From NCBI GenBank assembly GCA_030295235.1, contig AP026147.1, forward strand, positions 186,001-250,000: DNA of 64,000 nt, in the 5' to 3' direction. Origin of the DNA: Fistulifera solaris (Eukaryota). Both the position numbers and the translations under genes were made by a program. The notes under the pieces are model-generated. The model saw nothing but the letters and a program-made list of their open reading frames with translations, did not search any database and was not told the origin of the DNA. Positions 38,657 through 64,000 of this stretch are shown here, piece by piece. Each line of letters starts with the position of its first letter. The stretch's first letter is position 1.

Positions 38657-39122
38657 TGTACGGAAACGCGATGATTTAAGGAATGACAAGAATGTCAACG
38701 ACAGTGCAGAGAATGAAAATGGTAAGTGAAGTTGCAACAACAAGAGCGTAAACGCAATCAAAGAAAATATAAACAAAGCGATGCGAGCGCAAGTAAAATG
38801 CGACGAGATGCGACGATGACGTCGATCGAGCGAAATGCATCAATGAATGTCTGTCCTTCGTGCTTTCGAACGGACGACGGACGGCTCGAACGGCATTGAA
38901 ATGGTACTTCGCAAGCGAGTCTCACTCAGACTATAACAATGTGTTGTACAGATGCCGAAGCGGAACAAAATTTAAAGCAAAATTTCGAACTGCGGCAAAA
39001 ACAAAAGGCTTCGGTTGCCGCACTCATCGGAATGTCATTGCCTTTTATTAGATCATACATTCCAGTTTACATTTCGACTCGGTTTGTTAATTGATCTCCA
39101 ACATTCTACCGGCAAAGTCAAC

Positions 39123-40910
39123 ATGAAATTCGCGTCCGTCGTTCGCAATGACGACGCCTCACATTTGTCGGAACGAACTCGCCTATTACGGACCGAATCA
39201 TCCTCTTCAGCAGAGAAGAATCATCAAGATGACGAATCAACCAATAGGATATTCTACTGGATCGGCGGTGGCTTACTGCTGTTCTGTGTACTCTGCTTTC
39301 CACATTCTTTTAAATCGTCCTCGGCGACGACTCATTCACCGGACGAGGCCACCATGATGCAACTCTTGCGACAGTGGGACGAATGGGGCAAGCAGAAAGC
39401 ATCGTACAACATGTGGGGGAAGAAGTACACGGACGACGACTCATCATCGTCATTGCGTCCCCAGAAATTATCGAATTCATCCACAACGACCGATGTTGTG
39501 GACGAAGAGGATGCAGAACATGCACCAAAGAAGAACAACAACTTGCATCACGCACAAGAGTGGGCGCAAGAGACATGGAAGAATGCTTCCCACGAAGCCG
39601 AACAATGGTGGCAGGATACTGACAACAACAGGCAATCGACACAAGAATGGTTTCATCACGCCTGGAATCAAACATCGCAACAAGCGCACGCAATATGGAA
39701 TCGTTTGCAACAACAAGAACAACCCCAAATTTGGTGGAATCAAACGATGCACACGGAACAGCAGTGGTGGAATCAGACCTTGCGTCATTTGCATCGGTTC
39801 GGAAGGACCGTGCAGTCGTGGTGGGGACAGGCCACTGCGGAGACGCAAAACGAAACACAAGTGTTGGGACAACAGTTTCAACAGTGGTGGGCCCAAGCCA
39901 GTCAAGTCGAACGACAATGGTGGAAGGATACCGTCCAAGCGTCCCGACAATTCGAGCAGGTTGCGGAACAGAAAACCGGTCTCTGGTGGGATGCCACCAA
40001 GGCGGTGACCGGAAAACAGTGGAATTATACCGTTCATCAAGAACACGTGTGGTGGAATGCGACGGAACGATGGTTTCATGATCATCAATTGGTGGATACG
40101 GCGGCGGACCAGCCGTTATTGTACATGAATTCATCGCAGGCGTATTCCATGCTCATGAATGGCTACGGCTGGTACGATTATTCGTCCGATTTCTTCTTGT
40201 ATCAGTCGGGATGGGATGCCCAAATCAACCAAGCTTACTGTGCGGTGGCGTCGTCGGCCGCCGTGCTCAATTCTTTGCGTGCGCAATTGACGTTGCCGAT
40301 CGATGCCATGTACGATCCCCACCCGTACGCGACACAATCTATTCTGTTGAGTGCGGACTGCGTCAATCGCAAAGTGGTCCGGTACAACGATACCTTCAAT
40401 GGTATTTTGCAATTTCCCGGTGGACTCTCGTTATCGCAGGCCCGACAATTGCTTCAATGTCACTTGGATTCGTCCATCTGGGATGTGACGATCGTTCACG
40501 TCGATCCCTCCGATACAACGACCGATCAAGTCCGAAGGGATTTACAAAGTGCACTCAAGGACCCGAATGCTCGTGTTTTGATCAACTACGATCGTCGGGG
40601 ATTGGGACAAGAGGGAGGAGGACACTTTTCGCCACTGGGTAGCTATTCACCACAGCATGACGCCTTTTTGATAATGGATGTTGCCAAATACAAATATCCT
40701 CCCGTTTGGGTCCCCACCGCTCGCTTGGTGGCGGCTATGGGAACGGTGGATGCGTGTGGGATGTGGGATTATCCGCAACAACAAGATCGATTGGCCGAAA
40801 AGGGCTTGTTGCGACCCGACTCGTCACGGTCGTTTGAGAAAGCACAGGCTATTTTGGGCTGTGAAGAACGCTTCCGGGGATATTTGATTGTGAAGCGTCA
40901 GACGGAATGA
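39123..40910 (+). CDS. Phytochelatin synthase-like enzyme with N-terminal dileucine motif, TM helix and Trp-rich repeat stalk
   Basis: Catalytic triad motifs QINQAYCAVAS, GGGHFSP and LIMDVAKYKYPPVWV; no Cys-rich C-terminal domain; ERTRLL; TM IFYWIGGGLLLFCVLCF. Confidence 0.88.
   Translation: MKFASVVRNDDASHLSERTRLLRTESSSSAEKNHQDDESTNRIFYWIGGGLLLFCVLCFPHSFKSSSATTHSPDEATMMQLLRQWDEWGKQKASYNMWGKKYTDDDSSSSLRPQKLSNSSTTTDVVDEEDAEHAPKKNNNLHHAQEWAQETWKNASHEAEQWWQDTDNNRQSTQEWFHHAWNQTSQQAHAIWNRLQQQEQPQIWWNQTMHTEQQWWNQTLRHLHRFGRTVQSWWGQATAETQNETQVLGQQFQQWWAQASQVERQWWKDTVQASRQFEQVAEQKTGLWWDATKAVTGKQWNYTVHQEHVWWNATERWFHDHQLVDTAADQPLLYMNSSQAYSMLMNGYGWYDYSSDFFLYQSGWDAQINQAYCAVASSAAVLNSLRAQLTLPIDAMYDPHPYATQSILLSADCVNRKVVRYNDTFNGILQFPGGLSLSQARQLLQCHLDSSIWDVTIVHVDPSDTTTDQVRRDLQSALKDPNARVLINYDRRGLGQEGGGHFSPLGSYSPQHDAFLIMDVAKYKYPPVWVPTARLVAAMGTVDACGMWDYPQQQDRLAEKGLLRPDSSRSFEKAQAILGCEERFRGYLIVKRQTE
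39550..40085 (+). repeat. Coding-level WW-containing, roughly 11-residue amphipathic repeat
   Basis: WWNQTMHTEQQ-WWNQTLRHLHR, WWAQASQVERQ-WWKDT and WWDATKAVTGK-QWNYTVHQEHV-WWNAT. Confidence 0.7.
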
Positions 40911-42362: not shown

Positions 42363-43907
42363 TCACGCCTCGGGCTTGGCAGCACCGGGACCCGTCGGAA
42401 TGATTTCACCCGCTTCTTTCAAAACAGCCGCAAAGTATTCAATCGTTTTCTTGAGTCCTTCATCCACCGACACCTTGGGCTCCCAATCCAGCTCCCGTTT
42501 GGCGGTTTGAATATCCGGTCGGCGCTGCTGAGGATCATCCGTGGATTTAGGGAGTTTTATGATTTGCGAAGACGATTTCGTCAAGGCCTGGACGTGTTCC
42601 GCGAATTCCGCAATCGTCCATTCCGAAGGATTTCCCAAATTGACCGGTTGGGTGTAGTCGTTGTTCATGAGAGCATGCAATCCATCTACTAGATCCGAAA
42701 CATACTGGAAGGAACGAGTCTGTTTTCCGTCACCGTAAATCGTCATGTCTTTGTTCTGCAAGGCTTCAATGATGAAATTGGACACCACCCGACCATCGTT
42801 CGGGTGCATGCGGGGACCAAACGTGTTGAAGATACGGGCCACGCGAATGTCCAAACCATTCTGTTTCTGATAACTGTACATCATCGTTTCCGCGACACGT
42901 TTGCCTTCATCGTAACAGGCCCGAGGTCCGATGGTGTTGACGTGACCCCAGTAACTTTCCGGCTGTGGACTGACTTCGGGGTCTCCGTAAATTTCCGACG
43001 TGCTGCTGAGCAAAATACGAGCATGGACGCGTTTGGCGAGGCCCAACATGTTGAGTGTACCCATGACGCTGGTTTTGATCGTTTTGACGGGATTGTACTG
43101 GTAATGGGGCGGCGATGCTGGGCAAGCGAGATGGTAGATTTGATCGACTTCGAGTTGGATGGGTTCGGTGACATCATGCACAATCAAACTGGCGTGTGTA
43201 GTAAGATTAGGGAGGAACGAAATGAATGTCGTTGAGTGTTTTGCAAATAAGTAATTGCAAAATCGAACAACGAAAAGAACGCACCTGAAATTCGGATGAT
43301 GAAGCCAATGAGCAATATTCTTCTTTTGACCGGTAAAAAAGTTATCCACCACAATCACTTCATGACCTTCCATCATCAATTTATCTACGAGATGAGATCC
43401 GACGAAACCGGATCCACCCGTCACAAGAATTTTTTTGCGATGATGATCAGGAAGATAGGCCGTTTTCATGACATACGGAGTCGTCGAGGTTGGCAAGGAT
43501 TGCTTCGAAAGCACATCCCGATCTTCAAGTAGACGTTTCTCGGCTTCGGTCGTAATTTTGGCAATTGTAGTTTCCAAAGTACGCTGATCGGCCCGTAAAT
43601 AAGGATTCGAAGATTCGGCGATGGGGTAAGGATTGGCCTTGACGGATTGTTTTTCCAATTTCGGAAGACCTTGCATCGCTTTCTCAATGTCCATTTCCAC
43701 CAGCAAGACCGGCAAAACCACATAGCCCACCAAAATACCGGCACCCAGTAACGCCAGCGACTGACGACTCCACAATCCTCCTCCGCTGCGTCCTCCTTCG
43801 ACGACGCCGTGACGGCGCGTTAACGATCGCGAAGTTGCCACATTATTACTGTTGTTCGATGGACTCGAACCATGCCGACGTTCCGTCAAGGAAGTTACTC
43901 GCACCAT
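42363..43907 (-). CDS. UXS1: UDP-glucuronate decarboxylase (UDP-xylose synthase), membrane-anchored (intron 43189-43284)
   Basis: [51 protein letters not shown]-terminal TM helix. Confidence 0.95.
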
Positions 43908-44284
43908 TTTAGGCAGGTCGCAGCTTGTGTGGAAATGAAGGAAAGTAAGGAAACGAACCAGCTGCTTCCTCTCACTCACTTTTGTACCACTAAGTATTGT
44001 TGCGAACGTTAGCTGGAATGGTGAGAGAAATGGGCGCTGTGACTTTTTCCAGTCTTTGTTTGGACAATATACTTTCTGTCGTACAGTGATTGTTTATTTA
44101 TGGTTCGGGACACAACACATACGTCGGAGTAGCCTATTCAGTCACGGACTAAGTACAAGCATCTGATAAACAACTAGAGATAAAGAAAAACGAAGCGCGA
44201 CAGCGGGGGCAACGAAGCATTACTCCCTATGATACGAAAGAAATCGATGAATAAAGAGAGTGATAGTCTTTATCGAAACGGCTC

Positions 44285-48228: not shown

Positions 48229-50935
48229 TCAAACGTTCACAATGAGCAGGTTCAACTCAACTTCGGTACCTTTGTTTCCCTGATTGCTACTTGAAGGCAG
48301 CGGTGTTCCCCTTATCTTTACTGACGCGTAGTTGAGGAAAGAATTGTTCGTTTCAAACGGAGGAACTCTGTCCCAATCCGTGTTGGATCCACCGCCGCCA
48401 TTATTCGATATCACAAACGAAACACTGTTCACTGGACCGTTCGTGACTGAAATGATAGGGCGGACTTTTAGATCTGTACCGTACGTCACGGTGCTGATCG
48501 TTTGACCTTCCGTAAGAGAAGGAATCAAAACAGTGCCCAATCCGTCGACGAGAGACCAACCAGAGATAGTGCCGACAGGTCCCGGTGTCGTGGGCGCGGC
48601 ACTTGGAGATGAAGTTGGATCCACAGTTGGAAGCGGAGAGGAAGTTGGCGCGACGGATGGAGGCGAAGTCGGATCTTCAGATGGAGACGAAGTCGGGCTC
48701 ACAGATGGTGGGTTGACAGGGACTATGACTGGACTTGGAACGGGCACAGATACAGGACTCGGAACGGGGTTTGGAGCCGAGACGGGGCTTGTTATCGGAG
48801 CAGGAACAGGAGCATTACTTGGTGATAAAGTTGGACTCGTGGTAGGACTTCGTGTAGGACTTCGTGTTGGACTTCCTGTAGATGCGCGTGATGGGGCTTC
48901 AGTAGGAGTTCGTGTCTGAGCTTCAACAGGAGTTTGTGTTTGTGATCGTGTTGGACTGTCCGTAGCTGTAGTTATCGGCATTGGAACTGGAGGAGAACCA
49001 CTATCTGGCAGTGATACAGGACTCGCAATTGGCGGGCTGGCAACTGTCGGCGAGGCAACCGGCGCTGTCGGCGCGGTTCCAGTTGGGAATGATTGTCCAA
49101 TCGGCATTGATTGTCCAGTCGGCATTGACTGACCTGTAGGCACGAAAGGACCGACATTAGCTGTCGAAGGCCTAGGGGTTACCGCGGCGGCCGTCGGACC
49201 TGCAACGAATGTATTGGTCGGATTCGCAGTAGCGTCGATACCTACGGGTGGCGTTTGACCGTCAGTCCCTGTCGAAGGTGTCGGGATGACAACAAAACCT
49301 TCCGTAGGGGTATTTGTAAACGTAGCGACTGGCGACATCATTATTGGGGGACTTGAAGAAGGAGGCTCCATCGTAGGCGATACAATTGGCAATGGCGCCA
49401 ACACTGGTAAACCTAAAGGAATTCCAGGTAATGTACTTGTTGTCGGGACACCAGTACTTCCTGGTACTGCTGGAATAGGCGCCGTAACGGGAGACGGAGT
49501 AACGCCGAAAATAGGCTTATTCGTGGGTGACTCGAACGCTGGAAAGGATAGCGGAGATCGGCTTGGTATTCTATCGTAGCTTAGATCATCACCGGGCGAG
49601 GGCGTGGGCTCAAATCCGAGGGATCCCAAGTCTTCAAAGAACGATTCTGGAGAAACCGAAGGAGCACTACCTTCTGTGAGAGTGTCAAACTTGTACGCAA
49701 CGAGCTCGTTTTCTGCGAAAACAGGCTTCGGAACGTTGATTTTCATTTCTTCCTCTGCCATGTAACTTCCCAACGTCGCTCCTCCCAGACCTCCTGCTGC
49801 TATGATGGAGCCAATTGCTACCCCAACAGCGAACTTGGCACTCACGGTGGCAGCAGCAGCAGCTGCTCCTCCAGCCGCGACAGCAGTGGCGCCACCAGCT
49901 GCCGCTCCCGCGGATGCAGCTACTGTGATTGTCGCTGCTCCTTGTCCCACAGAAGCACCCGCTGTCTGTGCTGCTTGGATCATGGCTTGTTTCATTACTT
50001 GTGCCCTGAAAGAGTTGGAAATCGAAAGTTAGCGAATGCGCAGCTGATATCAAATCGATACAACATCACAGATCACCCACAAATTACTTACGTTACATCT
50101 TGTTGAACCACAAAAGCCCCCGTCATATTGCGTGACGACTCGTGCGCTCCCGCTTGTGCGAAACTCGAAAAATCACCTCCTCGATTCATCATTCCGTGTA
50201 GATTCCCGCCGCGGTCTACCATAACGTGAGCTGCCACTGCATCTTCTGCGATATCTTCTTCATTATTTTGGTTGTTTAGAAGTCGTTTCCCCAGCCGCAT
50301 GAGCGGATCCATGGCAAAATACATGCCGCCTTGTAACATGAGTCCGTACCCCATTTGTTTTGCAAATTGCCGTGTCGGGTCCTCCTCTTCCGCCTCCTCT
50401 CCCTTCTTTTCGAAACTACCCCCAGATCCGTTGGCGTTTGTAGCATCCACTAACATAGGAATGTCCTCCAGAGTCATGGAATTTTCCATCGGAGCGGTTT
50501 TTGCATCATGAAAGTGCGATATGGAAGCTTCACTCGCAAACGATTCAAAGGAGCCATCCCACAGGTCGCCAGCGGATTTGTTGAGTGCACTTTAACAATA
50601 ATAAAGAGATGGTACAAAGCAAAAAGCAAAGTGAGGAAGAAGTTGCGGTTGCCAATTTTTAATACCGTGATAGCGCGGATGAAAGGCCTCTTTCCCGGTG
50701 AATACTCCGTAACAAAGCCTGCTACTTACGAGAAGGACATCATACCGTCCGGTATATCGGAATAGGCATCCATGAACGAAGGATCTTCGTCTCCTTCACT
50801 GAGATGCATACTTTCGCTCGAAAGAGTATCCTGATTGTCTTTGGCATCGTAAAATTTCCCGTCCGGGTGTAAGGGCAACTCTCTGGACTCGTTATTCGCA
50901 TCGAAAACGGTCACGGACTCGGCAAATCCGACCAT
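48229..50935 (-). CDS. Unknown family paralog A: FFAT-like acidic N-terminus, Gly/Ala membrane segment, PTS mucin stalk, terminal beta-domain (introns 50590-50729, 50006-50091)
   Basis: Three ORFs join in frame through GT-AG introns; strongly similar to paralog B. Confidence 0.8.
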
Positions 50936-52149
50936 CGTCACCTAACTAATGAATAACAGGGCAGATATTGAGGACCGAAAGCGTTTCAGGGTCTATACTC
51001 TAGTCGGGGATCTATTCTTGTTGTTGTTGCTCCATCCGTCTCGTCGAGGAAAAAAAAAAGCGTTTCGTCGTTTTGTTGCGCGCTTGCGGTGGACGGTGGA
51101 TGGAGAAAATTGCAGGGCCTATATCGCTTCGTTCATTACTTCCACTCTTCTACTATCTTTTGTATACTATCAGCCCCGTGTCGATTCTACTTCTTACGTT
51201 GGTACGGAAAGAATTTTTAGTTTCGCTTGAAGTGCCAGATTCACGTTTAGCACTTAAGTAATTGAGGGGGACGAAAGACACCCAAACTGAAGCGCGACGC
51301 TGCTTGTCATAGTGGATGGTAGAACGTAGATTCAAGAATATTCCTTCTTAATTTTACTATACGTTCCAATGTAGAAAACGTTCACGTTTTGGTCGTAAAA
51401 CAAATCTGCATCGATAGTCTTTTGTACATTATTTATGACTATCGTTCGAAAGGGCACTATAATTGTTAACTCCCGTACGTCATCGTCTATCTCGTAGAAA
51501 TTTGTACCAGCTTCACGTAGGATATTTGAACCATTAACCCTATTGAATGACTGGGTGGTGCATTGACAAAGACGGGAAGACGATGATGTTGTGATGGCTG
51601 GATCTTTTGCATTGCAAAAGCGTTCATTTCATCGAATAGGCTCGTCGATGAGCGATATTTTCTTTTCGACACCAGCAAATGAGACCTCTCGAGTTGTTAA
51701 TAAGAGTTGGACGCCGAACGATGGTCTAAAGAAGACACCATTCCCGAAACAAATGCTCCTCATTTATCTTGATCCTGCTCAAGAGCACAAACAATTAGGA
51801 TTCTTCGGTGACGCGGCACCTGGCCAAATACGCTAATCATTTCTGTTCTCATGAAACTGCGAATAAAACAACGAGATCGCGCAGAAAAGTTGAATATTAA
51901 TCGACAGAACAAGTTGCAAAGCAGAGAACTAATGAGAACATGAGAACGAGTGTAACTCCTTGCGACGAGCACCTTATCGGAGAATGTCTACCGCAAACTA
52001 TCGATCGATTATGCAGCAAAGCTTATTAAATTAATTTGACACGGCCGCTCAGATGCTACTGAGCAGTTGGCTCTACACTATTATGAACACATGGTCGAGT
52101 GTCTCCTGCTTCATGTTAATTTCGGAGCAGCATTCACCGAAGACAAGAT

Positions 52150-55100
52150 TTAGGATATCGTGCCAATGATCGACAAATTCAGCCCAACTTGAACACCCTT
52201 GTTGCCCTGATTACTGTCGGATGGGAGCGGAGTCGCCTTGATGCTGACCGAAGAAAATCGGAGGAATCTGTTATCCGTCTCAAAAACTGGACCGGGTCTG
52301 CTCCAGATCGACGAAGATCCACCGCCGTTGTTGTTATCGATGTCAAAGTTGACGCTCTTGACAGGGCCCCATATTGTCAAATAGAGGGCCCGGACTCGGA
52401 GGTTTGTCCCATAAATCGCTGTATTGATGGTTTGTCCCTGGAACAAAAATGGAATCAGTACATTTCCCCCTCCATCGACCAGCGAAAAGCCAATGATGTT
52501 GCCCACGGGCCCCGTGCCAACCGGCGGCGCGGCCACCGGCGTCGGCTGGGGCGCAATTGGGACCGGCTGTTGCTCCGTGGGTACAGGAACGACAATAGGT
52601 GCGCCGGTCGGATTGTCGATGGGACTTTTTGTTGGTGTTAACGAAGGCTTTGAGCTCGGTCTGGAACTCGGAACAGGAGTGGGAGAACCTGTTGTTGTAA
52701 TCGGATTACTAGTCGGGTCATTGGTTGGCAAAGTGGTCGGTCCTGGACTTGGAATTGAGCTTGGATGATCCGTAGGGACTGTTAACGGGCTTACTGGCGG
52801 GTTACTGACTGGCGTTAGTATGGGACTGCTTGTTGTCGGCGTTGGTCTCGGTAAAGCTACACTTGGCACGGAGCTGGGATGTTCCGACGCCGCAGATGGA
52901 ATGCTAGTCGGACTGCTAGTGGGCAAGAGGTCGGTATCGCGCTTGGTACAACGCTCGGAACAAAGCTCGGAGAATCGGAAGGAACCAATGAGGGCATTTC
53001 GGAAATTTCTGCTACCGGGTTCGTGTTTGGCGCTCTGACTGGACTACCGGTAGTCGGCGTAGGACGAGGCATATCTGTGGGTGAGGAGCTGGGCAGCGAA
53101 TTCGGCAGCGAACCTGCATCGTCAGTCGTGGGCGCAAATGTTGGCTTAGAACTTGGAGTCAAAGTTGGATTGTCGATAACTGAGTCATTGCTTGGGGATG
53201 CGGAGGGAGAAATAACGAAATTCGTTGGACGCAAAGAAGCAGGCATCGATAGGCTTGGCTTAGCGGTCGGTACAAAGGTTGGCTCATCCGCAACCACCGA
53301 TGGTGTGTTTGTGGGACCAGTTTTTGTGGATAGGGGTGCTGAGCTTGGAATTGAGCTTGGACTGTCCGCTGTCATCGTTGGGACGAGGTTTGGCGATGAC
53401 AGGGGGCTGTTTGTCGCAGTTGGTATTTGAACCGGGCTCGACATATTGGGCTGTAATGTTGGAGTCCCAGTAAACGTACTTACTGGACTGTCGCTTAACT
53501 TTATTGTTGGTGATCGCGTTGGCATACCAGTTTTTGCTGATAAAGTGGTGGAAGGACTTGACGAGGAGGCGGCAATAGGGTTGGGGAGGGCTGGAATCTC
53601 CGTTGTCACAGTCCAGTCAGAAGGCACCGTAGTTCCAGTCGGGTCTGTGATTGCAGAGCTTGGCGAAAAAGTCAAGACGCCTTCTAATATGGTTGGTGAT
53701 GGCGTCAACGTAGGGAATGACACAAATTCTTCCGTCGGATTGTTTGTTGAGGTCGGGATGGGTGATGTTGACGGAATGAAACTTGCCAAATCGATGGGAA
53801 TACCTAAAGCTGGTTGCTGAGTTGCAATCATCATAGCAGGATTTCCAGCCAACCCACCACCTGGGACGCCCGTACTACCTGGTGTTGGCGCCACAACGGG
53901 TGATCCACTCGTGCTTATAGTGGGTGTTGATCCAGGACCTGACGGCAATGGTCTTGTTGGATCGACGTGGTTGCCAAGATCTTTGTTTGGCGAGGCTGTG
54001 GGTAGATATCCGAGAGAATCCCACGACTCCGGAGAAACCGAAGGAGCAATCCCTACTGGCAGGTCCAGAGTATCAAATCTGTACGAAGCTAGCTCTTGCT
54101 TAGCGAAGACGGGCGTAACGTCGACGTTTAACTCCTTCTCTCCCATGTAACTTCCGAGCGTCGCTCCACCCAGACCTCCCACTGCAATGATAGAGCCAAC
54201 AGCTAGCCCAATGGCAAACTGGGCACTCATAGTGGCGGCAGCAGCAGCTCCTCCCGCCGCAACAGCAGTGGCGCCACCAGCAGCCGCTCCAGCGGATGCT
54301 GCTACTGTCATCGTTGCTGCTCCCTGTCCCACGGATGCTCCTGCTGACTGGGCAGCTTGAATCATGGCTTGTTTCATTACCTTTGCCCTGTAAAAGGATA
54401 GGAAAGTCAGTCAAAGCAAAAGTCAAACTGCTCTTGCTTGATGCTCCACTCAGCGAACGACTTACGTTACATCTTGTTGGAGAACAAACGCCCCCGTCAT
54501 ATTGCGAGATGACTCGTGTGCGCTAGCATGTGCGAAAGTGGAAAAATCACCCGCACGGGTCGTCATACCGTGTTGCCCGCTTCGGTTCACCATCATCTGA
54601 GCTGCCGCTACATCCTCCAAAATGTCCTCCTCGTTTCCTTCATTGCTAAAGAGCCGTTTTCCTATTCTCATCAATGGATTTAAGGCGAATTGCAACCCGC
54701 CCTGAAGCATGAGTCCATATCCCATCTGTTTTACGAATTGACGAGTCGGATCCTCCTCTGGTTCATCCTCTTCCTTCTTTGGTGTACTGCTTATACTATC
54801 GCTTGAACCGTTTGCGTTGTTTGCGGCTACCAAATTGGGAAGGTCCTCGAGCGTCATGGAGTCTTCCATTGGAATTGGCTTGGACTCGATTGTCGTATCC
54901 TGAAATTGCGACATCGATGCATTCCCGTCACCGCCCAATTCAAAAGAATCGTCCCACAAGTCGCTAACGGATTTGTTGAGTGTGCTGTGTCAAAGAGGTG
55001 AATCAATGTATTTGGGAGAGAGGCAACGTCGATGTTAGCAGGGCACTCATTTGCGTAAATTGAGAGCTCCGCCACTCATTTACTTACGACAACGACATCA

Positions 55101-55308
55101 TGTTATCGGAAAGATCACCGATCGGCATGGTAGAGAACGCATCTATAAATTCATCATCTGCTTCACTCAGATGCAAGCTTTCGTTGCCGAGATTGTCGCT
55201 TTCCTGGTCGTCCTGCGCATCGTAAAATTTGCCGTCGGGATGTAATCTTAACTCCCTGGACTCATTGTTCGCGTCAAAGACGGTAACAGAGTCGGAAAAC
55301 CCGACCAT
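52150..55308 (-). CDS. Unknown family paralog B (introns 54985-55087, 54388-54465; frameshift near 52925)
   Basis: Same exon structure and motifs as paralog A (LHPDGKFYDA, QMGYGLMLQGG, MKQAMIQAAQ, NQGNKG). Confidence 0.8.
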
Positions 55309-56632
55309 GGCGGCGTTGTTTGTTGTTGTTTAACAACTTTTGCTCGGACAAAATAGTCTTGTTGTGATTGTTGTTTGTCGTTTTCGCAGTGGCTTTCGTG
55401 TTCTTGCTTTGAAGTTCATTACTACAGGCCCAAACAGAATGGCGGTACACCTTGTAATATACTACGCCAGAGGCAAGAACTATGACCCTTATGATTGTGT
55501 ACCCTACTGGTTAGTGAAAGTACTAAGTAAGCTGTTTCCTAAGTATTGCTTGTTGCTGGGTTTTAACGGGTTTTCGGAGTATGTTATACGAGCTGACTGT
55601 GCATTACTCTTTTGGTCTTGGTCAAGAATTTGAGTCATGAGTCATAGCAACACGACTGAACGATAATGAGGAGGAGTCCGAGATCCTAGGATAAGATTTG
55701 AAGCTAAGGGATTAAATGAACGCCTAGATTAGATTAGTAACTTGCACTAGAATTTTTAATTCAAAGAAAAAGAGAGAGCGACTGGCGCCTGTTGCGCAAG
55801 GTGAACATAAGCTTAATCGTGTCGCCCGATTAGCGCCGAATGATTTTACTCTCCGAACAGAAAAATCATGCGATTTCATGTCTCACCAGCTGTGCTTAAT
55901 GCTAGTGAGTCCATGAGAGCGATTTGTAGCAAACTATTGCAAATCATTAGCCGCCGTGTGTCCTTCTACAGCTTAGGCCCCATTCAAGCATTGCTTGCAA
56001 CCATCATGGAAAGGGAAGGTGCGGGCAATCACGTAGGTCCACGTAGAGAAATTTACCACAGCAGAGGTGCGTTCCCGTGCCGTGAGTTATAAGCCATAGT
56101 TTCCGTGTCGCCCTAACAAATAGGTCTAGCAAGAAGGTTCCATTGACATCAGTGTTTTCGATGATGTCAAAAAGTGAAGACGAGAGAAAGTCTCCCTCTG
56201 GTCGTGATGACCTCAGTTTTGTATCATCGAGTACCGCTTCGATGTGCGAGACTCCGAGCCTTCCGTACTCCTTCGAGTGTAAACTTTAACCTTAAAACGT
56301 CAGCTAAGTAGGAACGGAATGGGGGCCAAGGGCCAACGCGAACAAAAAAAAAATCGACGATGGCACTTGGCCCAAACTCCGATTACGAGAAAGCGACCGA
56401 AAGAATCTTTCACTATCGATGCAAAAGTACAGTTCTCATGCCTCGATCTTTGGGGTGCTTTTTTGACACGAGAAATGCCACGGGCAATCAGCCCATCAAC
56501 ACTTTGCTCGTGGATTTTTGTTATTCTTTACTCGGAACTATCTCATTGTTTTTCTCAAACAGAGATAATCAAACAGAACAATCCTGAAGGATCAATTCTT
56601 GCGTCAAGCGAAATCGCCTACCTCATACAATC

Positions 56633-56848
56633 ATGTCTAAGATGTACCGTCAACTCCCCATCTTCCTCACTGTCATCGTTATGCTCTTTGCCGCTGTGAG
56701 TTCCTTTGGCGGACGAGGCAAACAAGCCGTTACCTCTCATGGATCCGGTCTCCACGGGCATCGTCTGTTAAACCATCTTTTAGATATCGGCGAGAATCCC
56801 AATGAAGATATCCGCACCAATGTCTTTTTGGCCATGGAAGGTCTTTAA
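56633..56848 (+). CDS. Possible small secreted or plastid-targeted peptide
   Basis: 71 aa ORF with a signal-peptide-like LPIFLTVIVMLFAAVSS-F in an otherwise long non-coding spacer; no homology recognised. Confidence 0.3.
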   Translation: MSKMYRQLPIFLTVIVMLFAAVSSFGGRGKQAVTSHGSGLHGHRLLNHLLDIGENPNEDIRTNVFLAMEGL

Positions 56849-57408
56849 GAGGCGAACATTGACGCCCACACTTTTGAAACCAAACGAACGAGAAAAAGAA
56901 CAATGTATTATTACTACATAGACAACACACAGTGTTGCGATCATAGAACGCAACCAGAACAATTCATTTATAATAGATCTTTTTTAACACCGAAGCTTCG
57001 CACAATCTTCTTTACTTGCGTCCTCTTTGTTGTATTGGGATGCGATTGGCGCCATTACGTCCTCCTTCACACAAGTGCATTGTTCAAGTTTATAAGCTTT
57101 TCTTTTGGAGCGATTTTGAGGGACTATCACGAAATGATCATCCTGTCAATTTCTTCTTCTTTAGAACGTTAACGGTCAAATTTTGCGAGTCATTTCGTCT
57201 GGTACTCGCGTTCGCCTTTTGCTAGGGAGAGAGATTTCCCCAGCAAATGTAGATACAATCAAGTATTTCGAGCAAGTTGCATAATTTGCGCATACCTTGT
57301 AGTAGAGCGGTTACATAGCATGACCTGATATCTGATCTCGAGCCAAAAAAATGCACTATAAATCATTTCTCTACTGTATCCTACATCGTGTTTGTCTACA
57401 ACTCCGCT

Positions 57409-59691
57409 TTACGCGACGACTTCGGCATCTCTTGCTTCGGCTGCATCACTGTCGTCATCTGACTTCTTGTCTTCCACCACAACATCCTGAACCGTCGACA
57501 CGACCTTCTCGTTCATGAGTCTCATCACACGCGACGCAAAGCTCTTCATGTCGGACACATCATAGCCGCTTGTCATAGATGCCACATCGTACATAAGTAA
57601 GGCAAAGTTCTTCAACTCCTCCGAGTCCTTGTCGCCCTTGACCATGCGATCCAAGTCCTGCACAATGGGATGATTGGGGTTGATCTCAAGGACAGCTTTG
57701 TTCATCGCATCAATGCCATTGATGTCCCCACCAGAAGATACAGCCTGTGCGCGCATGTAGCGTTGCATCGTTGGACTCATTCCGTAGGCCCCTTGCACCA
57801 AGGCGGCGGGCGAGTTCGTCAACAAATTGGAAACTTCCACTTTTTGAACTTTGTCTTTTAGTAACACTTCCAAATATTCGACAACCGGCTTGAGCTCCTC
57901 CTTTAGTGTTTCCTTTTTCTTCTTGGTTTCTTCATCTTCATCTAGCTTCAAATTCTCTTTGGCCGCATCGACAATGTCCTTTTCCTTGTAACTGCGCAAG
58001 CTTTCCATCATGATTTCATCCAACGGTTCGGTGGCGAAAAGGACATCATAGCCGCGTGATGCCAGCTTCTCAATGACCGGCGACATGGCGGCTCCGTCGC
58101 GGCCGTCTCCGGTGACAAAGTAAATATTCTTTTGGTCCTCCGCCATGTTTTCTACGTATTTATCCAAAGAGGTGTACTCTTCGCCCGATTTGCTGGAAAA
58201 GAATCGCAGCAACGGTGCGATTTCTTTGCGATTGGCATCGTCTTCGACAACACCCACCTTAAGGTATTTGCCAAAGTTATTCCAAAACATAATGTACTTG
58301 GTCGTGTCTTCGTCTTCCGCAATCTCGCGCATCATATCGAGCGACTTGCGGACCAAGCGTTTGTTGATGATGGAGAGTACCTTGGACTTTTGCAAAATCT
58401 CGCGACTCACGTTCAGTGGAAGATCGTTGCTATCCACAACACCGCGAACGAACTTGAGCCAGCGCGGCATCAACTCGTCGAACTTATCGTTGATAAAGAC
58501 ACGCTTCACATAGAGTCGAATGTTTCGAGCGTTTTCGTCAAACATGTCGCGCGACAATTCAAACGGCAGCATGCCGGGAATGTACAACAAAGCCTTGCAT
58601 TCGACTTGTCCCTCGAGTGAAAAATGGGTCCATTTCATGGGTTCGTCATAAGCGGCACGGAACGAAGTTTTGTAGAACGACTTGTATTCATCCTCTGTGA
58701 CATCTTTCGTGGGTCTCAGCCAAATGGGTTTTTGCGTGTTGACCAACTCATATCCTTGTTGCGTCACCGGAACCGTTTTCATTTTGGGCTCTTCACCTTC
58801 CTTTAGATCCTTGTTGGCTTCTTCATCGGGGACTTTCTTGTATTCGGTCTTTTCCTTCCAAACAGAAATAGGAAATTCAATGAATTCCGAGTAACGCTGC
58901 AATAGCTCTTCAATTTTGGCCGACTCGACGTACTCCACCGCCTCATCTTTCAAGTGCAGAATCAATTGAGTACCCGCTCCACTTTCAAACGTCACGGAAT
59001 CATCTTCTTCAATCGTATAACTACTATCCGCGGTCGAACTCCATCGATATTGTTTGGATCCTTCTTGCATGGATTTGGTGACAACTTCCACGCGGTTGGC
59101 GACCAAATAGGCCGAATAAAATCCGACACCAAATTGTCCAATGAGACCCAAATCCGCGGAACCATCCCCCAAGGCATCCATAAAGGCCCGCGTCCCCGAC
59201 TGCGCGATGCGACCCAAGTTGTTGATCAATTCGTCTTTCGTCATGCCGACGCCACTGTCTTGAATGATGAGGGTGTTGTTGTCGGGATCGGCTTTGATCT
59301 GAATGGATGGCGTGACCGACTCGCCTTCGGTCAGCGACAGGAAACGGCGTTTGTCACACGCATCGGCGGCATTGGAAACAAGTTCTCGCAAAAAGATATC
59401 CTTGTCACTGTACAAGGAATTGATGATGAGATCCATCACCCGACCGACGTCGCTCTGAAGAGACAGATAAGAATGAGTTTTCTGTACATCAGAAATGAAA
59501 CAACATTCAAAAGGACTTACGGTAAATTCATACGTCTCCTTTTCTTTTTCGGCCACGGTGCTCATGAATTTTCGGGTCGTAGTCGGCACGCCTACGCCAA
59601 ACGACGGTGTATTCCGCAGTTGCGAAGGAACAAACGCCGAACATCCGGCGGCGGCCATTAAGAGAGCGACCGATCCAGTACTGAACTTCAT
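57409..59691 (-). CDS. HSP90: Plastid-targeted Hsp90 (Hsp90C/HtpG type) (intron 59455-59520)
   Basis: Bipartite signal CSA-FVP; IINSLYSDKDIFLRELVSNA, IGQFGVGFYSA, DLPLNVSRE and LEINPNHP; no MEEVD or HDEL end. Confidence 0.95.
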   Translation of the reverse strand: MKFSTGSVALLMAAAGCSAFVPSQLRNTPSFGVGVPTTTRKFMSTVAEKEKETYEFTVSPFECCFISDVQKTHSYLSLQSDVGRVMDLIINSLYSDKDIFLRELVSNAADACDKRRFLSLTEGESVTPSIQIKADPDNNTLIIQDSGVGMTKDELINNLGRIAQSGTRAFMDALGDGSADLGLIGQFGVGFYSAYLVANRVEVVTKSMQEGSKQYRWSSTADSSYTIEEDDSVTFESGAGTQLILHLKDEAVEYVESAKIEELLQRYSEFIEFPISVWKEKTEYKKVPDEEANKDLKEGEEPKMKTVPVTQQGYELVNTQKPIWLRPTKDVTEDEYKSFYKTSFRAAYDEPMKWTHFSLEGQVECKALLYIPGMLPFELSRDMFDENARNIRLYVKRVFINDKFDELMPRWLKFVRGVVDSNDLPLNVSREILQKSKVLSIINKRLVRKSLDMMREIAEDEDTTKYIMFWNNFGKYLKVGVVEDDANRKEIAPLLRFFSSKSGEEYTSLDKYVENMAEDQKNIYFVTGDGRDGAAMSPVIEKLASRGYDVLFATEPLDEIMMESLRSYKEKDIVDAAKENLKLDEDEETKKKKETLKEELKPVVEYLEVLLKDKVQKVEVSNLLTNSPAALVQGAYGMSPTMQRYMRAQAVSSGGDINGIDAMNKAVLEINPNHPIVQDLDRMVKGDKDSEELKNFALLMYDVASMTSGYDVSDMKSFASRVMRLMNEKVVSTVQDVVVEDKKSDDDSDAAEARDAEVVA

Positions 59692-60119
59692 GATGACAAA
59701 GTGAGAGTGATTCGAATGCTTTTGATCGTTGTTGTTTTCGAAACGAAAGAAATGAAACAAGGAAAGATCGAAATAAAACGTACTTTTTGATGGCTGGAAA
59801 AGTGGAAGAAAGCTGACGTTGGGAAGCAGTACAAAAACAGACGTAGACTTCTACAGAGCGGCCACTGCGTCAGGGACGATAACAGACGGCAAGGATCGTA
59901 CAATTTGGATACGAGTATCTTTCATCCATGACACGTGGAACGTCTCAGATGGTGTCCGTACGTTTTTCTTGATCTGCGATGCGATGGTGTTTCCGTTGTT
60001 TTAGCGACACGAGAAACGAAAAAGACATCCGTTCATCGACTTGTTGCCTCGCAAACGAGCCTTTACCTTCATTTGGCTAACTTCCCTTCGCCCCATCCTT
60101 TCACAATTTGCATTTAACG

Positions 60120-61006
60120 ATGCCACGAGGAAGTGAAGCCAAGTTGCGTCGGCGCAATCAACGCAAAGACGAAGACAAGCAGGATTTGAACGCTATTTTT
60201 GGTGATCCAAATGGTGAAGAAACCGACGAAGTTCCCTTACCGCCCCGCATGAAGAATGCGGCACCCGTCGACGATCATGACTCGGAAGAAGAAGCACCAC
60301 CGGCCATGCCCAAAAAGAAAAAGGGTAAAGCCGTTCCGATTGGAGTACCTCCACCATCATCGAAAGGCGGCATCAAACGGGCGCCTTTGATTCTGCTCAT
60401 TTTGATGACGGGCACTACGTTGTTACCCGCGTTGTTGTACGCGGGGGACTTTTGAGTTCGTTCTTGGCGAAATCCAACATCACCGGTGGACTGGGCTATC
60501 GCATGGGCATCGGACATGTTCCTCGCAAGCGGGTGTTGTCGTTTTATGAGAAACATGCCCCGGAAAAGGTGAACGATGTTCCGCATATTTTGTCAAAATA
60601 TTATGGCGATTACCCCAAATTGATCAAGAGTTTGGAACGAAAGTATCAAGATTACGGATATTTCATGGGATGGGAAGAAGATGAAGCACCCATGAAACTC
60701 ATGACGGAATATTTGAACGACATTTACAGTCTGTGGATCAAGCAATGGAACAGACACGCACCACAGGCCTTGAAAACGGCGGCACGGAATGCCAAGTACA
60801 ATATCATGACGGTGTACAAGAAAGGACGGAAGATTTGGAAAGCCAAAGTGTGGCCCATGTTGGAGCCCATCTTTGGTGTGCCCGATGGCGCCGACAAACA
60901 AAAGCGACAAGATGCGGCCGAAGCTCGAAAACGCCGCAAAACCGACGGTGGTAACAAACCGCGACGCAAGAATCGGGAGTTCCGAGATGATGTCGATGAT
61001 TCTTAG
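60120..61006 (+). CDS. Hypothetical membrane protein; frameshift at 60450-60453
   Basis: Charged N-terminus, hydrophobic segment PLILLILMTGTTLLPALLY and small helical module SFYEKHAPEKV..ILSKY.G..L..KY; adding one T joins the two ORFs. Confidence 0.7.
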
Positions 61007-61158
61007 AAGCGAATGCATATTTACATATATAAATCGTTCTTAAATATGATTTCATTTCGTCTATACATCGCATGTTTGATAGTCTCTTATAGCTTTTGTT
61101 GGTTTTTGTTCATGACGTTGTCGAGGTGAATGTGCTATACAATAGTGCAAAGTCCTGT

Positions 61159-62184
61159 TCATAGCCGTTGTGTTTCTTCGTGGCGCTGTATTAAGAGACG
61201 TTTGATGTTATCATACAGCGGTAAGTAGATACAAACAAACGGAACAATCCATGATATCCTCGCTTCCATGCCACTGAAAAGTCCTTCCACACCATGAGAT
61301 TCGAGTGTATTCATAGCACAGTCCCAGTAATTGCAACTTTCCTCGGAAAGCATCAATTTCGTTTTGATGGTGTCCATCGGAGTGGTCAAAAATGCCGCTA
61401 TGGCGCCCGTGATCGAGGCCGCCCCGACTTCACGCAGCGTCGACTTGCTCTCATTGTCAAACGCCTTTTTCAACAGTTCGTAAACACCCAATTCCAGCAT
61501 GGTATAAGGAACATCACGATAACAAGTGGCATCATAACCGACCAAGAAACCCTCGACCCCGGCCGATCCGGCGATTCCTTGCACCGCCGCCGAAAAATCG
61601 GGGTACAAACCCATCTGCAGTTGTTGTTTGACGAGTTCTCCTGGAACCAAGAAGAGGGAAGACGAAAGAAACGCAATGCCCGCTCCCACAAACAAAATCG
61701 TGGACGGCATATTCCGTTTCCACCATTCCCACGTGGCGAATTTGGCGGCCCCGGCCAACGCATCGGAACCCGCGTACACCAAAAAGCCGTGATAGAACCC
61801 CGCCAGTCCGGACGTCGTCCACAAGTACTGTGCCGCATCTCCCAAGCTGTTGTGTAGCCCCAATTCCCACCCCAGATCCGATTGCTGCAAGGTCTTGATG
61901 CAATCCATCGGATGGATCATCACGTCCGCCACAAACGTCGTCACGGCACCCGCGAGGGCCAATTGCACGAGAGGTACGGCCGGTACGAAGACTTGGTCGG
62001 GTACGGACGAATCATCCGTCTCTTCGCGACTGCGTTTCCGAGACGTCACTACGGAAGAAAGTTCGGGAAGCGTCATGCGCAATGGACAACTCGAACACCG
62101 AGGGACTCCTCGAGGCACCGCAAAGCCCACGGAAGGCTCACCGTGTTGAAGTAGTAGTAGGAGGAGAAGGACGTTGTACTTCAT
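61159..62184 (-). CDS. Mitochondrial-carrier-family transporter (SAM-carrier-like) with bipartite plastid-type presequence
   Basis: Signature repeats PMDCIKT, PGELVKQ and PMDTIKT; RDVPY; N-terminal signal plus VG-FAV. Confidence 0.85.
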   Translation of the reverse strand: MKYNVLLLLLLLQHGEPSVGFAVPRGVPRCSSCPLRMTLPELSSVVTSRKRSREETDDSSVPDQVFVPAVPLVQLALAGAVTTFVADVMIHPMDCIKTLQQSDLGWELGLHNSLGDAAQYLWTTSGLAGFYHGFLVYAGSDALAGAAKFATWEWWKRNMPSTILFVGAGIAFLSSSLFLVPGELVKQQLQMGLYPDFSAAVQGIAGSAGVEGFLVGYDATCYRDVPYTMLELGVYELLKKAFDNESKSTLREVGAASITGAIAAFLTTPMDTIKTKLMLSEESCNYWDCAMNTLESHGVEGLFSGMEARISWIVPFVCIYLPLYDNIKRLLIQRHEETQRL

Positions 62185-62943
62185 GGTATTTGCTGTCAAT
62201 ATTGGAACTGTATTCTCCGATATGCTTTGGACATCAATGGGAAGTGAAGTGAAGTTTTCTCCTTTCTCATTTGCCAATCAGAAGCTCCCAACAAAGTTCT
62301 TTCGTCTTTCTTCGCATCCAGGTGCCGCATCGATTCGTAGCGGTACCGAAGGTTAATTTTTTTAAAAACGGAAACGTCAGTGCTACGGACGAGTGCAAGA
62401 CGGTATATCTGACCGACGTTCTTTTTCACACACATTCATCCAGTGCCGAGTGTCTTGAAATATGAGTAGTTTTTGCTCAACAATAAAGTGTCCAACCTTA
62501 TTCCTCACTTAGTACAGAACTGCCTGAATTTTGATAACGGAATTTTCGACTCTACCACAAAAGGTAGTGCAGTCCGCCGAATTTTCTGGTAGTACCGTTA
62601 AATGCGTGACAGGGGGTTAAATGATAAAGGCAAATGGTTCTCAGGGGCTTTTGTCAGTGGTTTTGCAACTTCCAGCGAAGTCTTGCTGTGAACGACTGAA
62701 ACCTCGAGCCAGAACTCGAGCGATAAAACTGCAACGATGAAAACTCTCACTCCAGCTGTTGTTGTACCAGTACTTGCAACACAGCAACCCAAAGCAAACA
62801 AGGATTGAAGAGGACTGCACTATCCTTTGGACTTGCTATTAACAATCATCCCTTCTTACGTTAATAAGAAGAATTTTTCTGGCGGTTTCATGGAATGAAC
62901 AGTCAGAGAGAGAGAGCTGCTGTAATAATATATTTAGTCAACA

Positions 62944-64000
62944 ATGGTTCAATTTGCCGATTCTGTCGTCATTATACCGGACGGTTTAGATCCGTATACA
63001 CTGCCCTTGCATCCCGACGGAACCTACGTGGATGGAAGCGAATCGTTGTCGGCGGAAAGCTTGGGTTTGGATGGGCTGGACAATGATGCTTCCTTTCAAG
63101 ATGCGATGCCAGCAGAAATGAGTATGGGCGACATGTACGTGAACAGAATCGATATGCTATTTTTAGTTGCAGCGAATGTTAAAAAGTCTCACTCGATCTT
63201 GTCCTAATTATATTCAGCGGCGGCGATGCCATGGTCTTTTCCGATTCGTTTCTGACCGACGAGGACTTTAGTAGCATGAGTGATTTTTCTGAAGCGACGC
63301 TCGAAAAGGAACCACCTTCGGATTACGACATTCTCAAACAGATGGGCACGAATGCCGCCCTTTCGGGGGCAGTCGCTTTTGCGGCGCCGACACTGATGAA
63401 ATATGGTTCGCGCTTGATGAATCAATCGAATGAAGCCGAAGATGCGGCCCTGGATTCGGCGGCCCTGGCCAATTTGAGCAATTCGGCATCGTTTTCACAA
63501 GGTGGCAACGCGACAGGTGCCTTTCCTGGATTTGGGGCCATTCCGGGTGGTGGCGGCGCGTTTCAAGCGGGTGTCTCGTGAGTTACTTGTGGTTGATTGT
63601 TGGTGCACGCAAGTCATTCTAGTGGCAACTCAACCTTTTGCTTCTCTCTGTTTTTAAGAAAATCTGTGATGCAGCAAGCAATGATTTTAGCGGCACGATC
63701 CGCTTCCACTTCAGTCGGACAAGGCTCAGCCGCCTTGACAACGGCAGCTGGTGGAAGTGGTGTTGTTGCTGGAGCCGTCGGTGGTGCGGTAGGTGGAACC
63801 TTTGGAGCGCTGGGCATAGGCATGAATGTTTTATTTGTTACATCGGTCGCAATGTCCCTGATAGGAGGTGCCATCGTAGGGCTGACAACAGGAGGATTTC
63901 TTCGACCCGAAACGCGGGCGGATATTTTTGTTCCTCTCAATATTTCTCTCTTCGATTTCGAAGTCATTGCTTCTCCGTCTGTGGTTCCATCAACGGTTGA
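62944..64000 (+). CDS. Unknown family paralog C, divergent, truncated by window end (introns 63135-63217, 63578-63658)
   Basis: MVQFADSV..LPLHPDG, KQMG, and spliced exon 3 VMQQAMILAARSASTSVGQG followed by a Gly/Ala hydrophobic segment; same intron phases as paralogs A and B. Confidence 0.75.

Follow-up and report, generated by a model that had tools for sequence, protein, structure and literature searches.

Previous studies described membrane proteins that recruit VAP of the endoplasmic reticulum (ER) through FFAT motifs, such as STARD3, PTPIP51 and Kv2.1/2.2 (PMC7705450), and ACBD5 is named as a further FFAT-bearing membrane protein (PMC8759595). In diatoms, TpSAP1-3 are described as having a single predicted span, a low-complexity luminal region and a conserved cytoplasmic part (PMC5647440), and an adhesion motility complex has been presented as a hypothesis (PMC11420354). 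It is an open question in diatoms how membrane and ER keep their place beneath the rigid wall of silica, and what bridges the membrane from the cytoskeleton to the secreted adhesive. Here we analyzed a stretch of 64,000 nucleotides from Fistulifera solaris (GenBank assembly GCA_030295235.1, contig AP026147.1, positions 186,001 to 250,000; the window), in which three genes, A, B and C, combine an acidic N-terminal half bearing an FFAT-like motif, a hydrophobic segment, a Pro/Ser/Thr stalk and terminal immunoglobulin (Ig)/fibronectin type III (FnIII)-like domains. The three-gene family is real and previously undescribed, and its proteins may link the cell surface with the ER. They are directly testable tether candidates with one motif and one predicted partner, in a species for which genome editing is reported (PMC13276009), and they show how an Ig-like module that is widespread in bacteria, though unnamed, is put to use on the membrane anchor of a eukaryote. 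The weight of the finding is limited by the narrow distribution found (the Fistulifera solaris genome and a few close relatives) and by divided readings of the topology.

Gene models

Exhaustive two-intron modelling was applied to six genes, namely A, B and C and their homeologs A', B' and C' on contig C35. All 12 introns (six in the window and six on C35) are GT..AG and in phase 2, which bears out the three genes, strands, coordinates and two shared phase-2 introns claimed in an earlier sequence-only reading of the window. The features are as follows.

48229..50935, minus strand: gene A, three exons (50935-50730, 50589-50092, 50005-48229), 826 aa, one terminal Ig-like domain; the homeolog on C35 has 867 aa
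50590..50729, minus strand: A intron 1, phase 2, GT..AG; acceptor placed by the longest frame and the homeolog
50006..50091, minus strand: A intron 2, phase 2, GT..AG (gene modelling)
50831..50935, minus strand: A N-terminal mini-domain of ~35 aa with HPDG turn, three-stranded in the B' model (residues 1-30)
50759..50797, minus strand: A FFAT-like motif with acidic tract upstream, score 1.0 (adapted matrix)
50277..50360, minus strand: A KQMG helix, comprising a small-apolar core, Pro and a basic amphipathic helix (model and hydropathy)
49765..49989, minus strand: A Gly/Ala-rich apolar stretch, with the best transmembrane window (49765-49833) at its end (hydropathy)
48580..49677, minus strand: A Pro/Ser/Thr stalk (composition)
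48232..48576, minus strand: A terminal Ig/FnIII-like domain (domain search, predicted fold)
52150..55308, minus strand: gene B, three exons (55308-55088, 54984-54466, 54387-52150), ~990 aa allowing for a frameshift near 52924 (gene modelling)
54985-55087 and 54388-54465, minus strand: B introns (gene modelling)
55132..55170, minus strand: B FFAT-like motif with acidic tract upstream, score 1.0 (adapted matrix)
54150..54374, minus strand: B Gly/Ala-rich apolar stretch, transmembrane window 54150-54218 (hydropathy)
52153..52506, minus strand: B terminal Ig/FnIII-like domain (domain search; fold from the B' copy)
62944..64000, plus strand: 5' part of gene C (exons 62944-63134, 63218-63577, 63659->64000); beyond the window it extends to 1363 aa with four Cys-paired Ig-like domains
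63135..63217, plus strand: C intron 1, phase 2, skipped in X3 and X4 contigs
63578..63658, plus strand: C intron 2, phase 2, skipped in X3 and X4 contigs
63073..63111, plus strand: C FFAT-like motif, score 3.0, borderline (adapted matrix)
63699..63896, plus strand: C Gly/Ala-rich apolar stretch, transmembrane window 63828-63896 (hydropathy)

The public gene model of B' has splice sites equal to the modelled ones, as judged from an identical prefix of 945 residues. For C, the X3 and X4 contigs skip exactly the two introns; these contigs are RNA by guess only, X4 covering 14 of 30 bins and having poly-T loose ends at the HSP90 gene. None of the 15 joints listed of 17 spans an intron of A or B, and the splicing expected from the sequence-only reading was thus recovered for C on these presumed RNA contigs, with A and B unbridged. 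That reading also had C cut by the window end, and reading on in the genome gave 1363 aa with four terminal-domain copies, in agreement with a 1363-aa public record over 1300 residues.

In the third exon of B the frame changes near 52924. The X1 and X2 contigs both have one additional base there at full depth, and therefore the frameshift is a one-base assembly error. Comparable breaks in the assembly of B', C and C' were assigned to assembly indels as well, because the public protein records are free of them. We rejected B as a pseudogene, since the extra base in X1 and X2 restores the frame and the homeolog record P0001 is a single protein of 1050 aa. An upstream exon encoding a signal peptide was also rejected, on the grounds of an in-frame stop in B, no AG just upstream, and the same start in 10 of the 11 exon-1 sequences.

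Elsewhere in the window, a gene at 60120-61006 (plus strand) is split by a one-base frameshift near 60452, where the X2 contigs carry one more base. Its C35 homeolog is a single 312-codon frame, with no Pfam match. Because of this extra base and the intact homeolog, the assembly was regarded as having homopolymer-type indels.

Conserved N-terminal half and FFAT-like motif

The ratio of nonsynonymous to synonymous substitution (dN/dS) between homeologs was 0.03-0.09 in exon 1, 0.08-0.14 in exon 2, 0.03-0.19 in the Gly/Ala and membrane segment, 0.15 in the terminal domain of A and 0.40-0.47 in the stalk. The strongest constraint lies on the acidic N-terminal half, although this looks disordered. 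The HPDG turn, the KQMG helix, the Gly/Ala stretch and one hydrophobic segment were found in A, B and C, as the sequence-only reading had described. In the B' model, built on a shallow alignment, residues 1-30 form three strands about the HPDG turn (pLDDT 75-89), residues 41-153 have pLDDT<50 and no secondary structure, and residues 155-188 form a low-confidence helix. This corresponds to the KQMG helix, in which a small-apolar core and a proline are followed by a basic amphipathic part (hydrophobic moment 0.5-0.8). A sequence search with the N-terminal mini-domain gave only weak matches to beta-propeller-like hairpins (best E 0.015), and in a whole-protein fold search of B' the matches were all taken by the Ig domain.

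In the N-terminal regions of the three proteins (50831-50935, 55204-55308 and 62944-63048), the first ten residues contain V-x-F-x-D/E-S-V, which we take to resemble an RVxF-type PP1 docking motif minus its basic residue; AlphaFold instead puts this region into a small beta-sheet.

All 11 exon-1 sequences (35-95% identity) have F-x-D-A after an acidic tract. The conventional FFAT motif is given as EFFDAxE with upstream acids, a score below 3 being strong (PMC8306308). We scored candidates with the phospho-FFAT matrix of PMC7705450 (Table EV4), with position 4 reset to Asp and with terms for the core and the upstream tract. A, A', B and B' scored 1.0 (shuffle p 0.001-0.002 for A and B), six of the 11 exon-1 sequences scored <3 and 10 scored 3 or better, and no control tile from other window proteins reached 2.5 (0/73). 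By this sequence criterion, A and B carry putative conventional FFAT motifs and C is borderline. The strong motif lies inside the pLDDT<50 region of the B' model, and residues 27-33 give another match, of lower strength, which coincides in part with a predicted strand and so falls outside unstructured sequence.

On the partner side, we found one VAP pair in the genome, with MSP domain, coiled coil, C-terminal anchor, and KTT and KDKFLVQ stretches that presumably map to the FFAT pocket. K87 and M89 are given as residues of the VAP pocket (PMC8306308). VAP relatives numbered 660, with one annotated VAP-A among the top matches. A genome search for OSBP as an FFAT control gave no match and was uninformative, its own controls being silent too. 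Judged by title and start of abstract, none of the literature matches listed for FFAT membrane contact sites was on diatoms. The sequence-only reading had called the proteins ER-anchored; the conserved putative motif gives this term a concrete basis that it had lacked, with location and docking as predictions.

Terminal Ig/FnIII-like domain

A and B have one copy of the terminal domain each and C has four. A profile of ten copies matched 478 representatives at E<=0.001 (150 of the 478 listed), and the few named relatives among the matches listed were Pontibacter, Aggregatilineales and Chloroflexota proteins. Among 30 relatives scanned with Pfam, 11 had a type IX secretion system (T9SS) C-terminal sorting domain at E<=1e-3 (7 over the cut-off), and the companion domains were PKD, PA14, InlB B-repeat and lyase. 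The domain is often tandem, with 613 copies (163 of 164 proteins). Moreover, hhalign of the domain against the relative P0047 gave a probability of 95.8%, the B domain matched P0042 in BLAST (E 3e-13), and a reciprocal genome search from P0047 returned a single match, the fourth domain of C (E 0.049).

AlphaFold, with a 50-row alignment, predicted an eight-stranded beta-sandwich (pLDDT 95.3), and the B' copy gave the same Ig/FnIII-like fold. The domain model matched CopC and fibronectin type III domains with tied scores over 85-95 residues at a root-mean-square deviation of 2.6-3.4 and Z up to 8.5, a level that the comparison tool rates as a common arrangement. No specific structural family was assigned, because Foldseek with the domain model returned nothing at E<=0.001. 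The ESM Atlas gave for the domain only weak leads to a bacterial hypothetical protein and to Big_7-like proteins (best 0.90, recognition below threshold). Thus the ~115 aa terminal domain, proposed in the sequence-only reading as a globular head, is supported as such by the predicted fold. The same reading did not recognise the protein family, and indeed the domain is outside Pfam and NCBIfam coverage, yet it can be identified as Ig/FnIII-like and belongs to a large repeat family that is mostly bacterial and occurs largely in secreted proteins.

In a tree of 166 domain sequences (mostly one domain per protein, leaving out fragments <95 residues and redundant cluster members), the 11 Fistulifera-type copies formed one long-branch clade (support 0.993) with an unresolved sister (0.56). 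A bacterial origin of the domain is likely. Two Cys occur in 7/7 C-type rows and in the relative P0006, and the complete pair occurs in 0/39 other relatives. From the strand order we infer that the C-type pair forms a disulfide, and the presence of the pair suggests that the compartment is oxidising.

The best PDB sequence relative of the domain profile was the C-terminal part of Anabaena All3314 (PDB 7B5H, E 4.8e-7). All3314 is described as the crown protein Cis19, with upper domains too flexible to model (PMC8894136). At about residues 1290-1405, this crown protein of a thylakoid-anchored injection system ends with a member of the Ig-like family, and this suggests a possible binding role for the flexible tip.

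The same Ig-like module is present in P0018, P0021, P0060, P0097 and P0120, several of which have Pro/Thr linkers. Some of their features are, we assume, diatom-like. Their position outside the Fistulifera clade is a hint that the module was acquired on separate occasions.

Membrane segment and stalk

The best membrane windows of A, B and C had hydropathy values KD19 of 1.8-2.6 and GES21 of 1.89-2.05, similar to those of a type II anchor control from the window (2.5 and 1.98). Each protein therefore has one hydrophobic segment near the control, as would be expected for the transmembrane helix of the sequence-only reading, and its claim of no signal peptide agrees with hydropathy, in which no signal-type hydrophobic segment was seen at the acidic N-terminus. 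A and B have Lys or Gln before the membrane segment and acids after it, which favors an N-in orientation, and C is neutral. The stalk contains 53-58% P+S+T over 365-572 residues, and we infer that it is O-glycosylated. Downstream of the membrane segment A has no Cys. From the sequences one, two or three membrane passes are possible.

Homeologs and extent of the family

The contig C35 carries a colinear copy of the window (which lies on C34), with ~80-87% nucleotide identity, in a genome of 51.7 Mb and 62 contigs, and has one homeologous copy each of A, B and C. A 945-residue prefix of B' is identical to the public record hypothetical protein FisN_15Lh252 of Fistulifera solaris, and the species is described as allodiploid (PMC13276009, PMC5935921); therefore, we treated C34 and C35 as Fistulifera solaris homeologs. 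The N-halves of A and C are 30% identical (three-sequence BLAST, E 2e-32). Whether queried with the anchor region, a distant relative or either of the first two exons, the genome gave the identical six loci, and no further family genes beyond A, B, C and their homeologs were found in these searches. In the terminal-domain search of the genome, 11 of the 12 candidates matched, all within the six loci. These family and domain counts are lower bounds.

Outside this genome, C-type exon fragments occurred in other assemblies, eight at 61-90% identity and one nearly identical to exon 1 of C in the window. A search of shorter proteins with C residues 1-290 found 10 fragments among 8000 candidates, all C-type, and an exon-2 alignment against longer proteins found only B' (one match among 7996 candidates). 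The absence of the family from other diatoms is weak evidence, because the searches took in just 7996 and 8000 candidates. Two metagenome scans found no related locus, a plasmid tblastn gave no match to the family, and the N-terminal 360 residues had no usable match in the ESM Atlas. Pfam and NCBIfam had no family above cut-off for the A, B and C proteins, the best being a sub-threshold PT repeat of Pfam. The proteins were not named as GAX11322, GAX11318 or FisN in the literature searched, although bioRxiv supplements and subscription-journal proteomes of this species, which lie outside that literature, may list them, and the gene names were missing from 11 supplements of PMC5935921.

Possible mode of action and alternative explanations

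We favor, at a little under an even chance, a tether from the ER to the surface or to a vesicle, in which a cytosolic head docks on VAP of the ER and the stalk and Ig heads point outward. The acidic N-terminal head would stay cytosolic, and the C-terminal part would be outside the cell or in a post-ER lumen. The Gly/Ala-rich segment would serve as a signal-anchor, and the chain would cross the membrane an odd number of times: once, or three times if the KQMG helix crosses as well. The O-glycosylated stalk would project the Ig heads, which could bind wall, matrix or another cell, and the FFAT-like motif would bind the MSP domain of ER-resident VAP, so that cortical ER would be clamped by the protein to a site on the surface or on a vesicle, itself fixed through the extracellular head. 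We favor a cytosolic, VAP-docking head because F-x-D-A is invariant, the FFAT scores of A and B are strong, exon 1 is constrained, a signal peptide is lacking, the charges of A and B favor N-in and the genome holds a VAP pair, and an outside or luminal C-terminal part because relatives of the domain are extracellular-type and C-type domains have the Cys pair.

Several observations weigh against this arrangement. C and C' scored 3.0 for the motif (p 0.046), not below the cut-off of 3 in PMC8306308, and five relatives scored 2.5-4, one of them at 4. FFAT matrices are said to match often in the reviewer exchange of the PMC7705450 supplement, and the matrix used here is our own adaptation. The terminal domains of A and B have no Cys. 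About 65 residues have GES21>=1.0, making a two-pass hairpin possible, and in the AlphaFold model the membrane segment is not a confident helix (pLDDT ~30-35, shallow alignment). In addition, N-x-S/T sequons, counted in six related sequences, were enriched before the membrane segment, with Ser/Thr in excess specifically at offset +2 from Asn (26 seen vs 9.9 expected; other offsets 8-15). The excess peaks between the KQMG helix and the Gly/Ala stretch (16 vs 5.7) and holds in less redundant pairs (p 0.02 to <0.001), suggesting that part of the N-half may be luminal. Such an excess was present in 0/5 presumed cytosolic controls and in one presumed luminal control (location presumed as well), and after the membrane segment sequons were depleted (17 vs 26.4 expected). 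A three-pass form with cytosolic head, KQMG crossing, glycosylated luminal loop, hairpin and outer stalk would reconcile the motif with the sequons; against it, the GES scores of the KQMG core stay under those of membrane segments, and basic residues come after the core. Hence the type II mucin-stalk membrane protein of the sequence-only reading stands as to the hydrophobic segment, the P/S/T stalk and the globular head, and its single pass is plausible, not secure, given the N-side sequons and the long apolar stretch.

The same architecture also fits a plain type II mucin-stalk adhesin or wall anchor with no link to the ER, in which F-x-D-A binds another cytosolic partner or is a signal for ER residence or trafficking. 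The borderline score of C agrees with this, and diatom adhesive and surface glycoproteins are described as typically having Pro/Thr/Ser-rich stalks (bioRxiv 10.1101/2023.03.06.531300); however, the motif and acidic tract of A and B match FFAT strongly, with F, D and A invariant, and the sequon enrichment is left unexplained as well, so that we consider it unlikely. The sequons would be accounted for if the N-half were translocated without a signal peptide and N-glycosylated, with the Gly/Ala stretch as a two-pass or re-entrant hairpin, both ends luminal or extracellular and the FFAT likeness incidental. Their enrichment runs across the pre-membrane part, including sites of A and B before the KQMG helix, the ~65-residue apolar stretch suits a hairpin, and Cys pairs and stalk fit equally; yet 200-300 residues would have to be threaded with no signal peptide, A/B-rich segments before the KQMG helix are similarly enriched at offsets +3 and +2 (8 and 9 vs ~4), and the invariant F-x-D-A is unexplained, and this is quite unlikely in our view. 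Conversely, both ends would be cytosolic in an intracellular hairpin-anchored protein, for example of the ER or lipid droplets, docked on VAP by FFAT and with the P/S/T region as a disordered spacer in place of a glycosylated stalk. The long Gly/Ala apolar stretch with an extra basic amphipathic helix, the missing signal peptide, the Cys-free A and B domains and the sequon depletion past the membrane segment are in line with such a protein, but all C-type domains gained paired Cys, the domain relatives are extracellular-type proteins, and the N-side sequons are again unexplained, making it very unlikely.

Returning to the VAP-docked tether, its widest form is a lineage-specific family in which a horizontally acquired bacterial adhesin-like module, a mucin stalk and a VAP-binding head, joined in a single polypeptide, would physically link wall or matrix, via the plasma or silica-vesicle membrane, to the ER. 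We hold this form to be rather doubtful; a wall-membrane-ER tether in diatoms did not turn up in the literature searches made. As to the roles proposed in the sequence-only reading (adhesion, gliding, mating or silica attachment), nothing found favors gliding, mating or silica attachment specifically.

Adjacent genes

Upstream of A, an NAD-dependent sugar-nucleotide epimerase/dehydratase, which we take to be UXS-like, is encoded at 42363-44093 (minus strand), and two nucleotide-sugar transporter genes are located just downstream of C (L007:5502-6356, minus strand, and L007:7382-8179, plus strand); the sugar-nucleotide genes may flank the family by chance. At 38976-40910 (plus strand), a phytochelatin-synthase domain (PF05023, E 3.5e-39) lies behind what appears to be a membrane anchor and an extended region rich in Trp/Gln and in sequons, and the product is possibly a luminal phytochelatin-synthase-like protein. 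Between B and HSP90, an open reading frame of 71 aa with a hydrophobic N-terminus and no Pfam match is located at 56633-56848 (plus strand), and an X4 contig covers its homeologous form.

Relation to described systems

Like STARD3, PTPIP51, Kv2.1/2.2 and ACBD5, the A, B and C proteins appear membrane-anchored and have an FFAT-like motif in a disordered acidic region, in a genome that has VAP with an MSP domain. Unlike these tethers, with which they were compared by description and with binding as a prediction, they end in a mucin-like stalk and Ig-like heads and not in a lipid-transfer, enzyme or channel domain. Their terminal domain is homologous over its full length to the Ig/FnIII-like repeat module of secreted proteins of bacteria such as the T9SS cargo Pontibacter WP_242916762, Chloroflexota PA14/Ig proteins and All3314, where it is also often tandem, whereas the diatom copies have a shortened central loop, the C-type Cys pair and a eukaryotic membrane anchor.

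Among diatom proteins, CaFAP1, CaTrailin4 and Ca5609 likewise join Pro/Thr/Ser-rich regions to a bacteria-related module; they are described with a signal peptide at the N-terminus and with CAA or Cys-rich domains, a membrane anchor being absent from those that carry CAA (bioRxiv 10.1101/2023.03.06.531300). Unlike the trailins and CaFAP1, the A, B and C proteins lack a signal peptide, have a membrane segment and carry another module, and Pfam gave no match to the CAA domain in them. With TpSAP1-3 they would share a single span, a low-complexity luminal region and a conserved cytoplasmic part; however, the SAPs are described as type I proteins with a signal peptide and a short C-terminal cytoplasmic domain, and the order and predicted orientation in A, B and C are reversed. 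DOAP1 is set apart by its description as having an ER signal sequence (PMC4113804), which A, B and C lack. Therefore, A, B and C are not of the trailin, CaFAP1 or SAP type, because all of those carry signal peptides. By analogy, the A, B and C proteins would act like a cross of FFAT-bearing membrane tethers and mucin-stalked adhesins.

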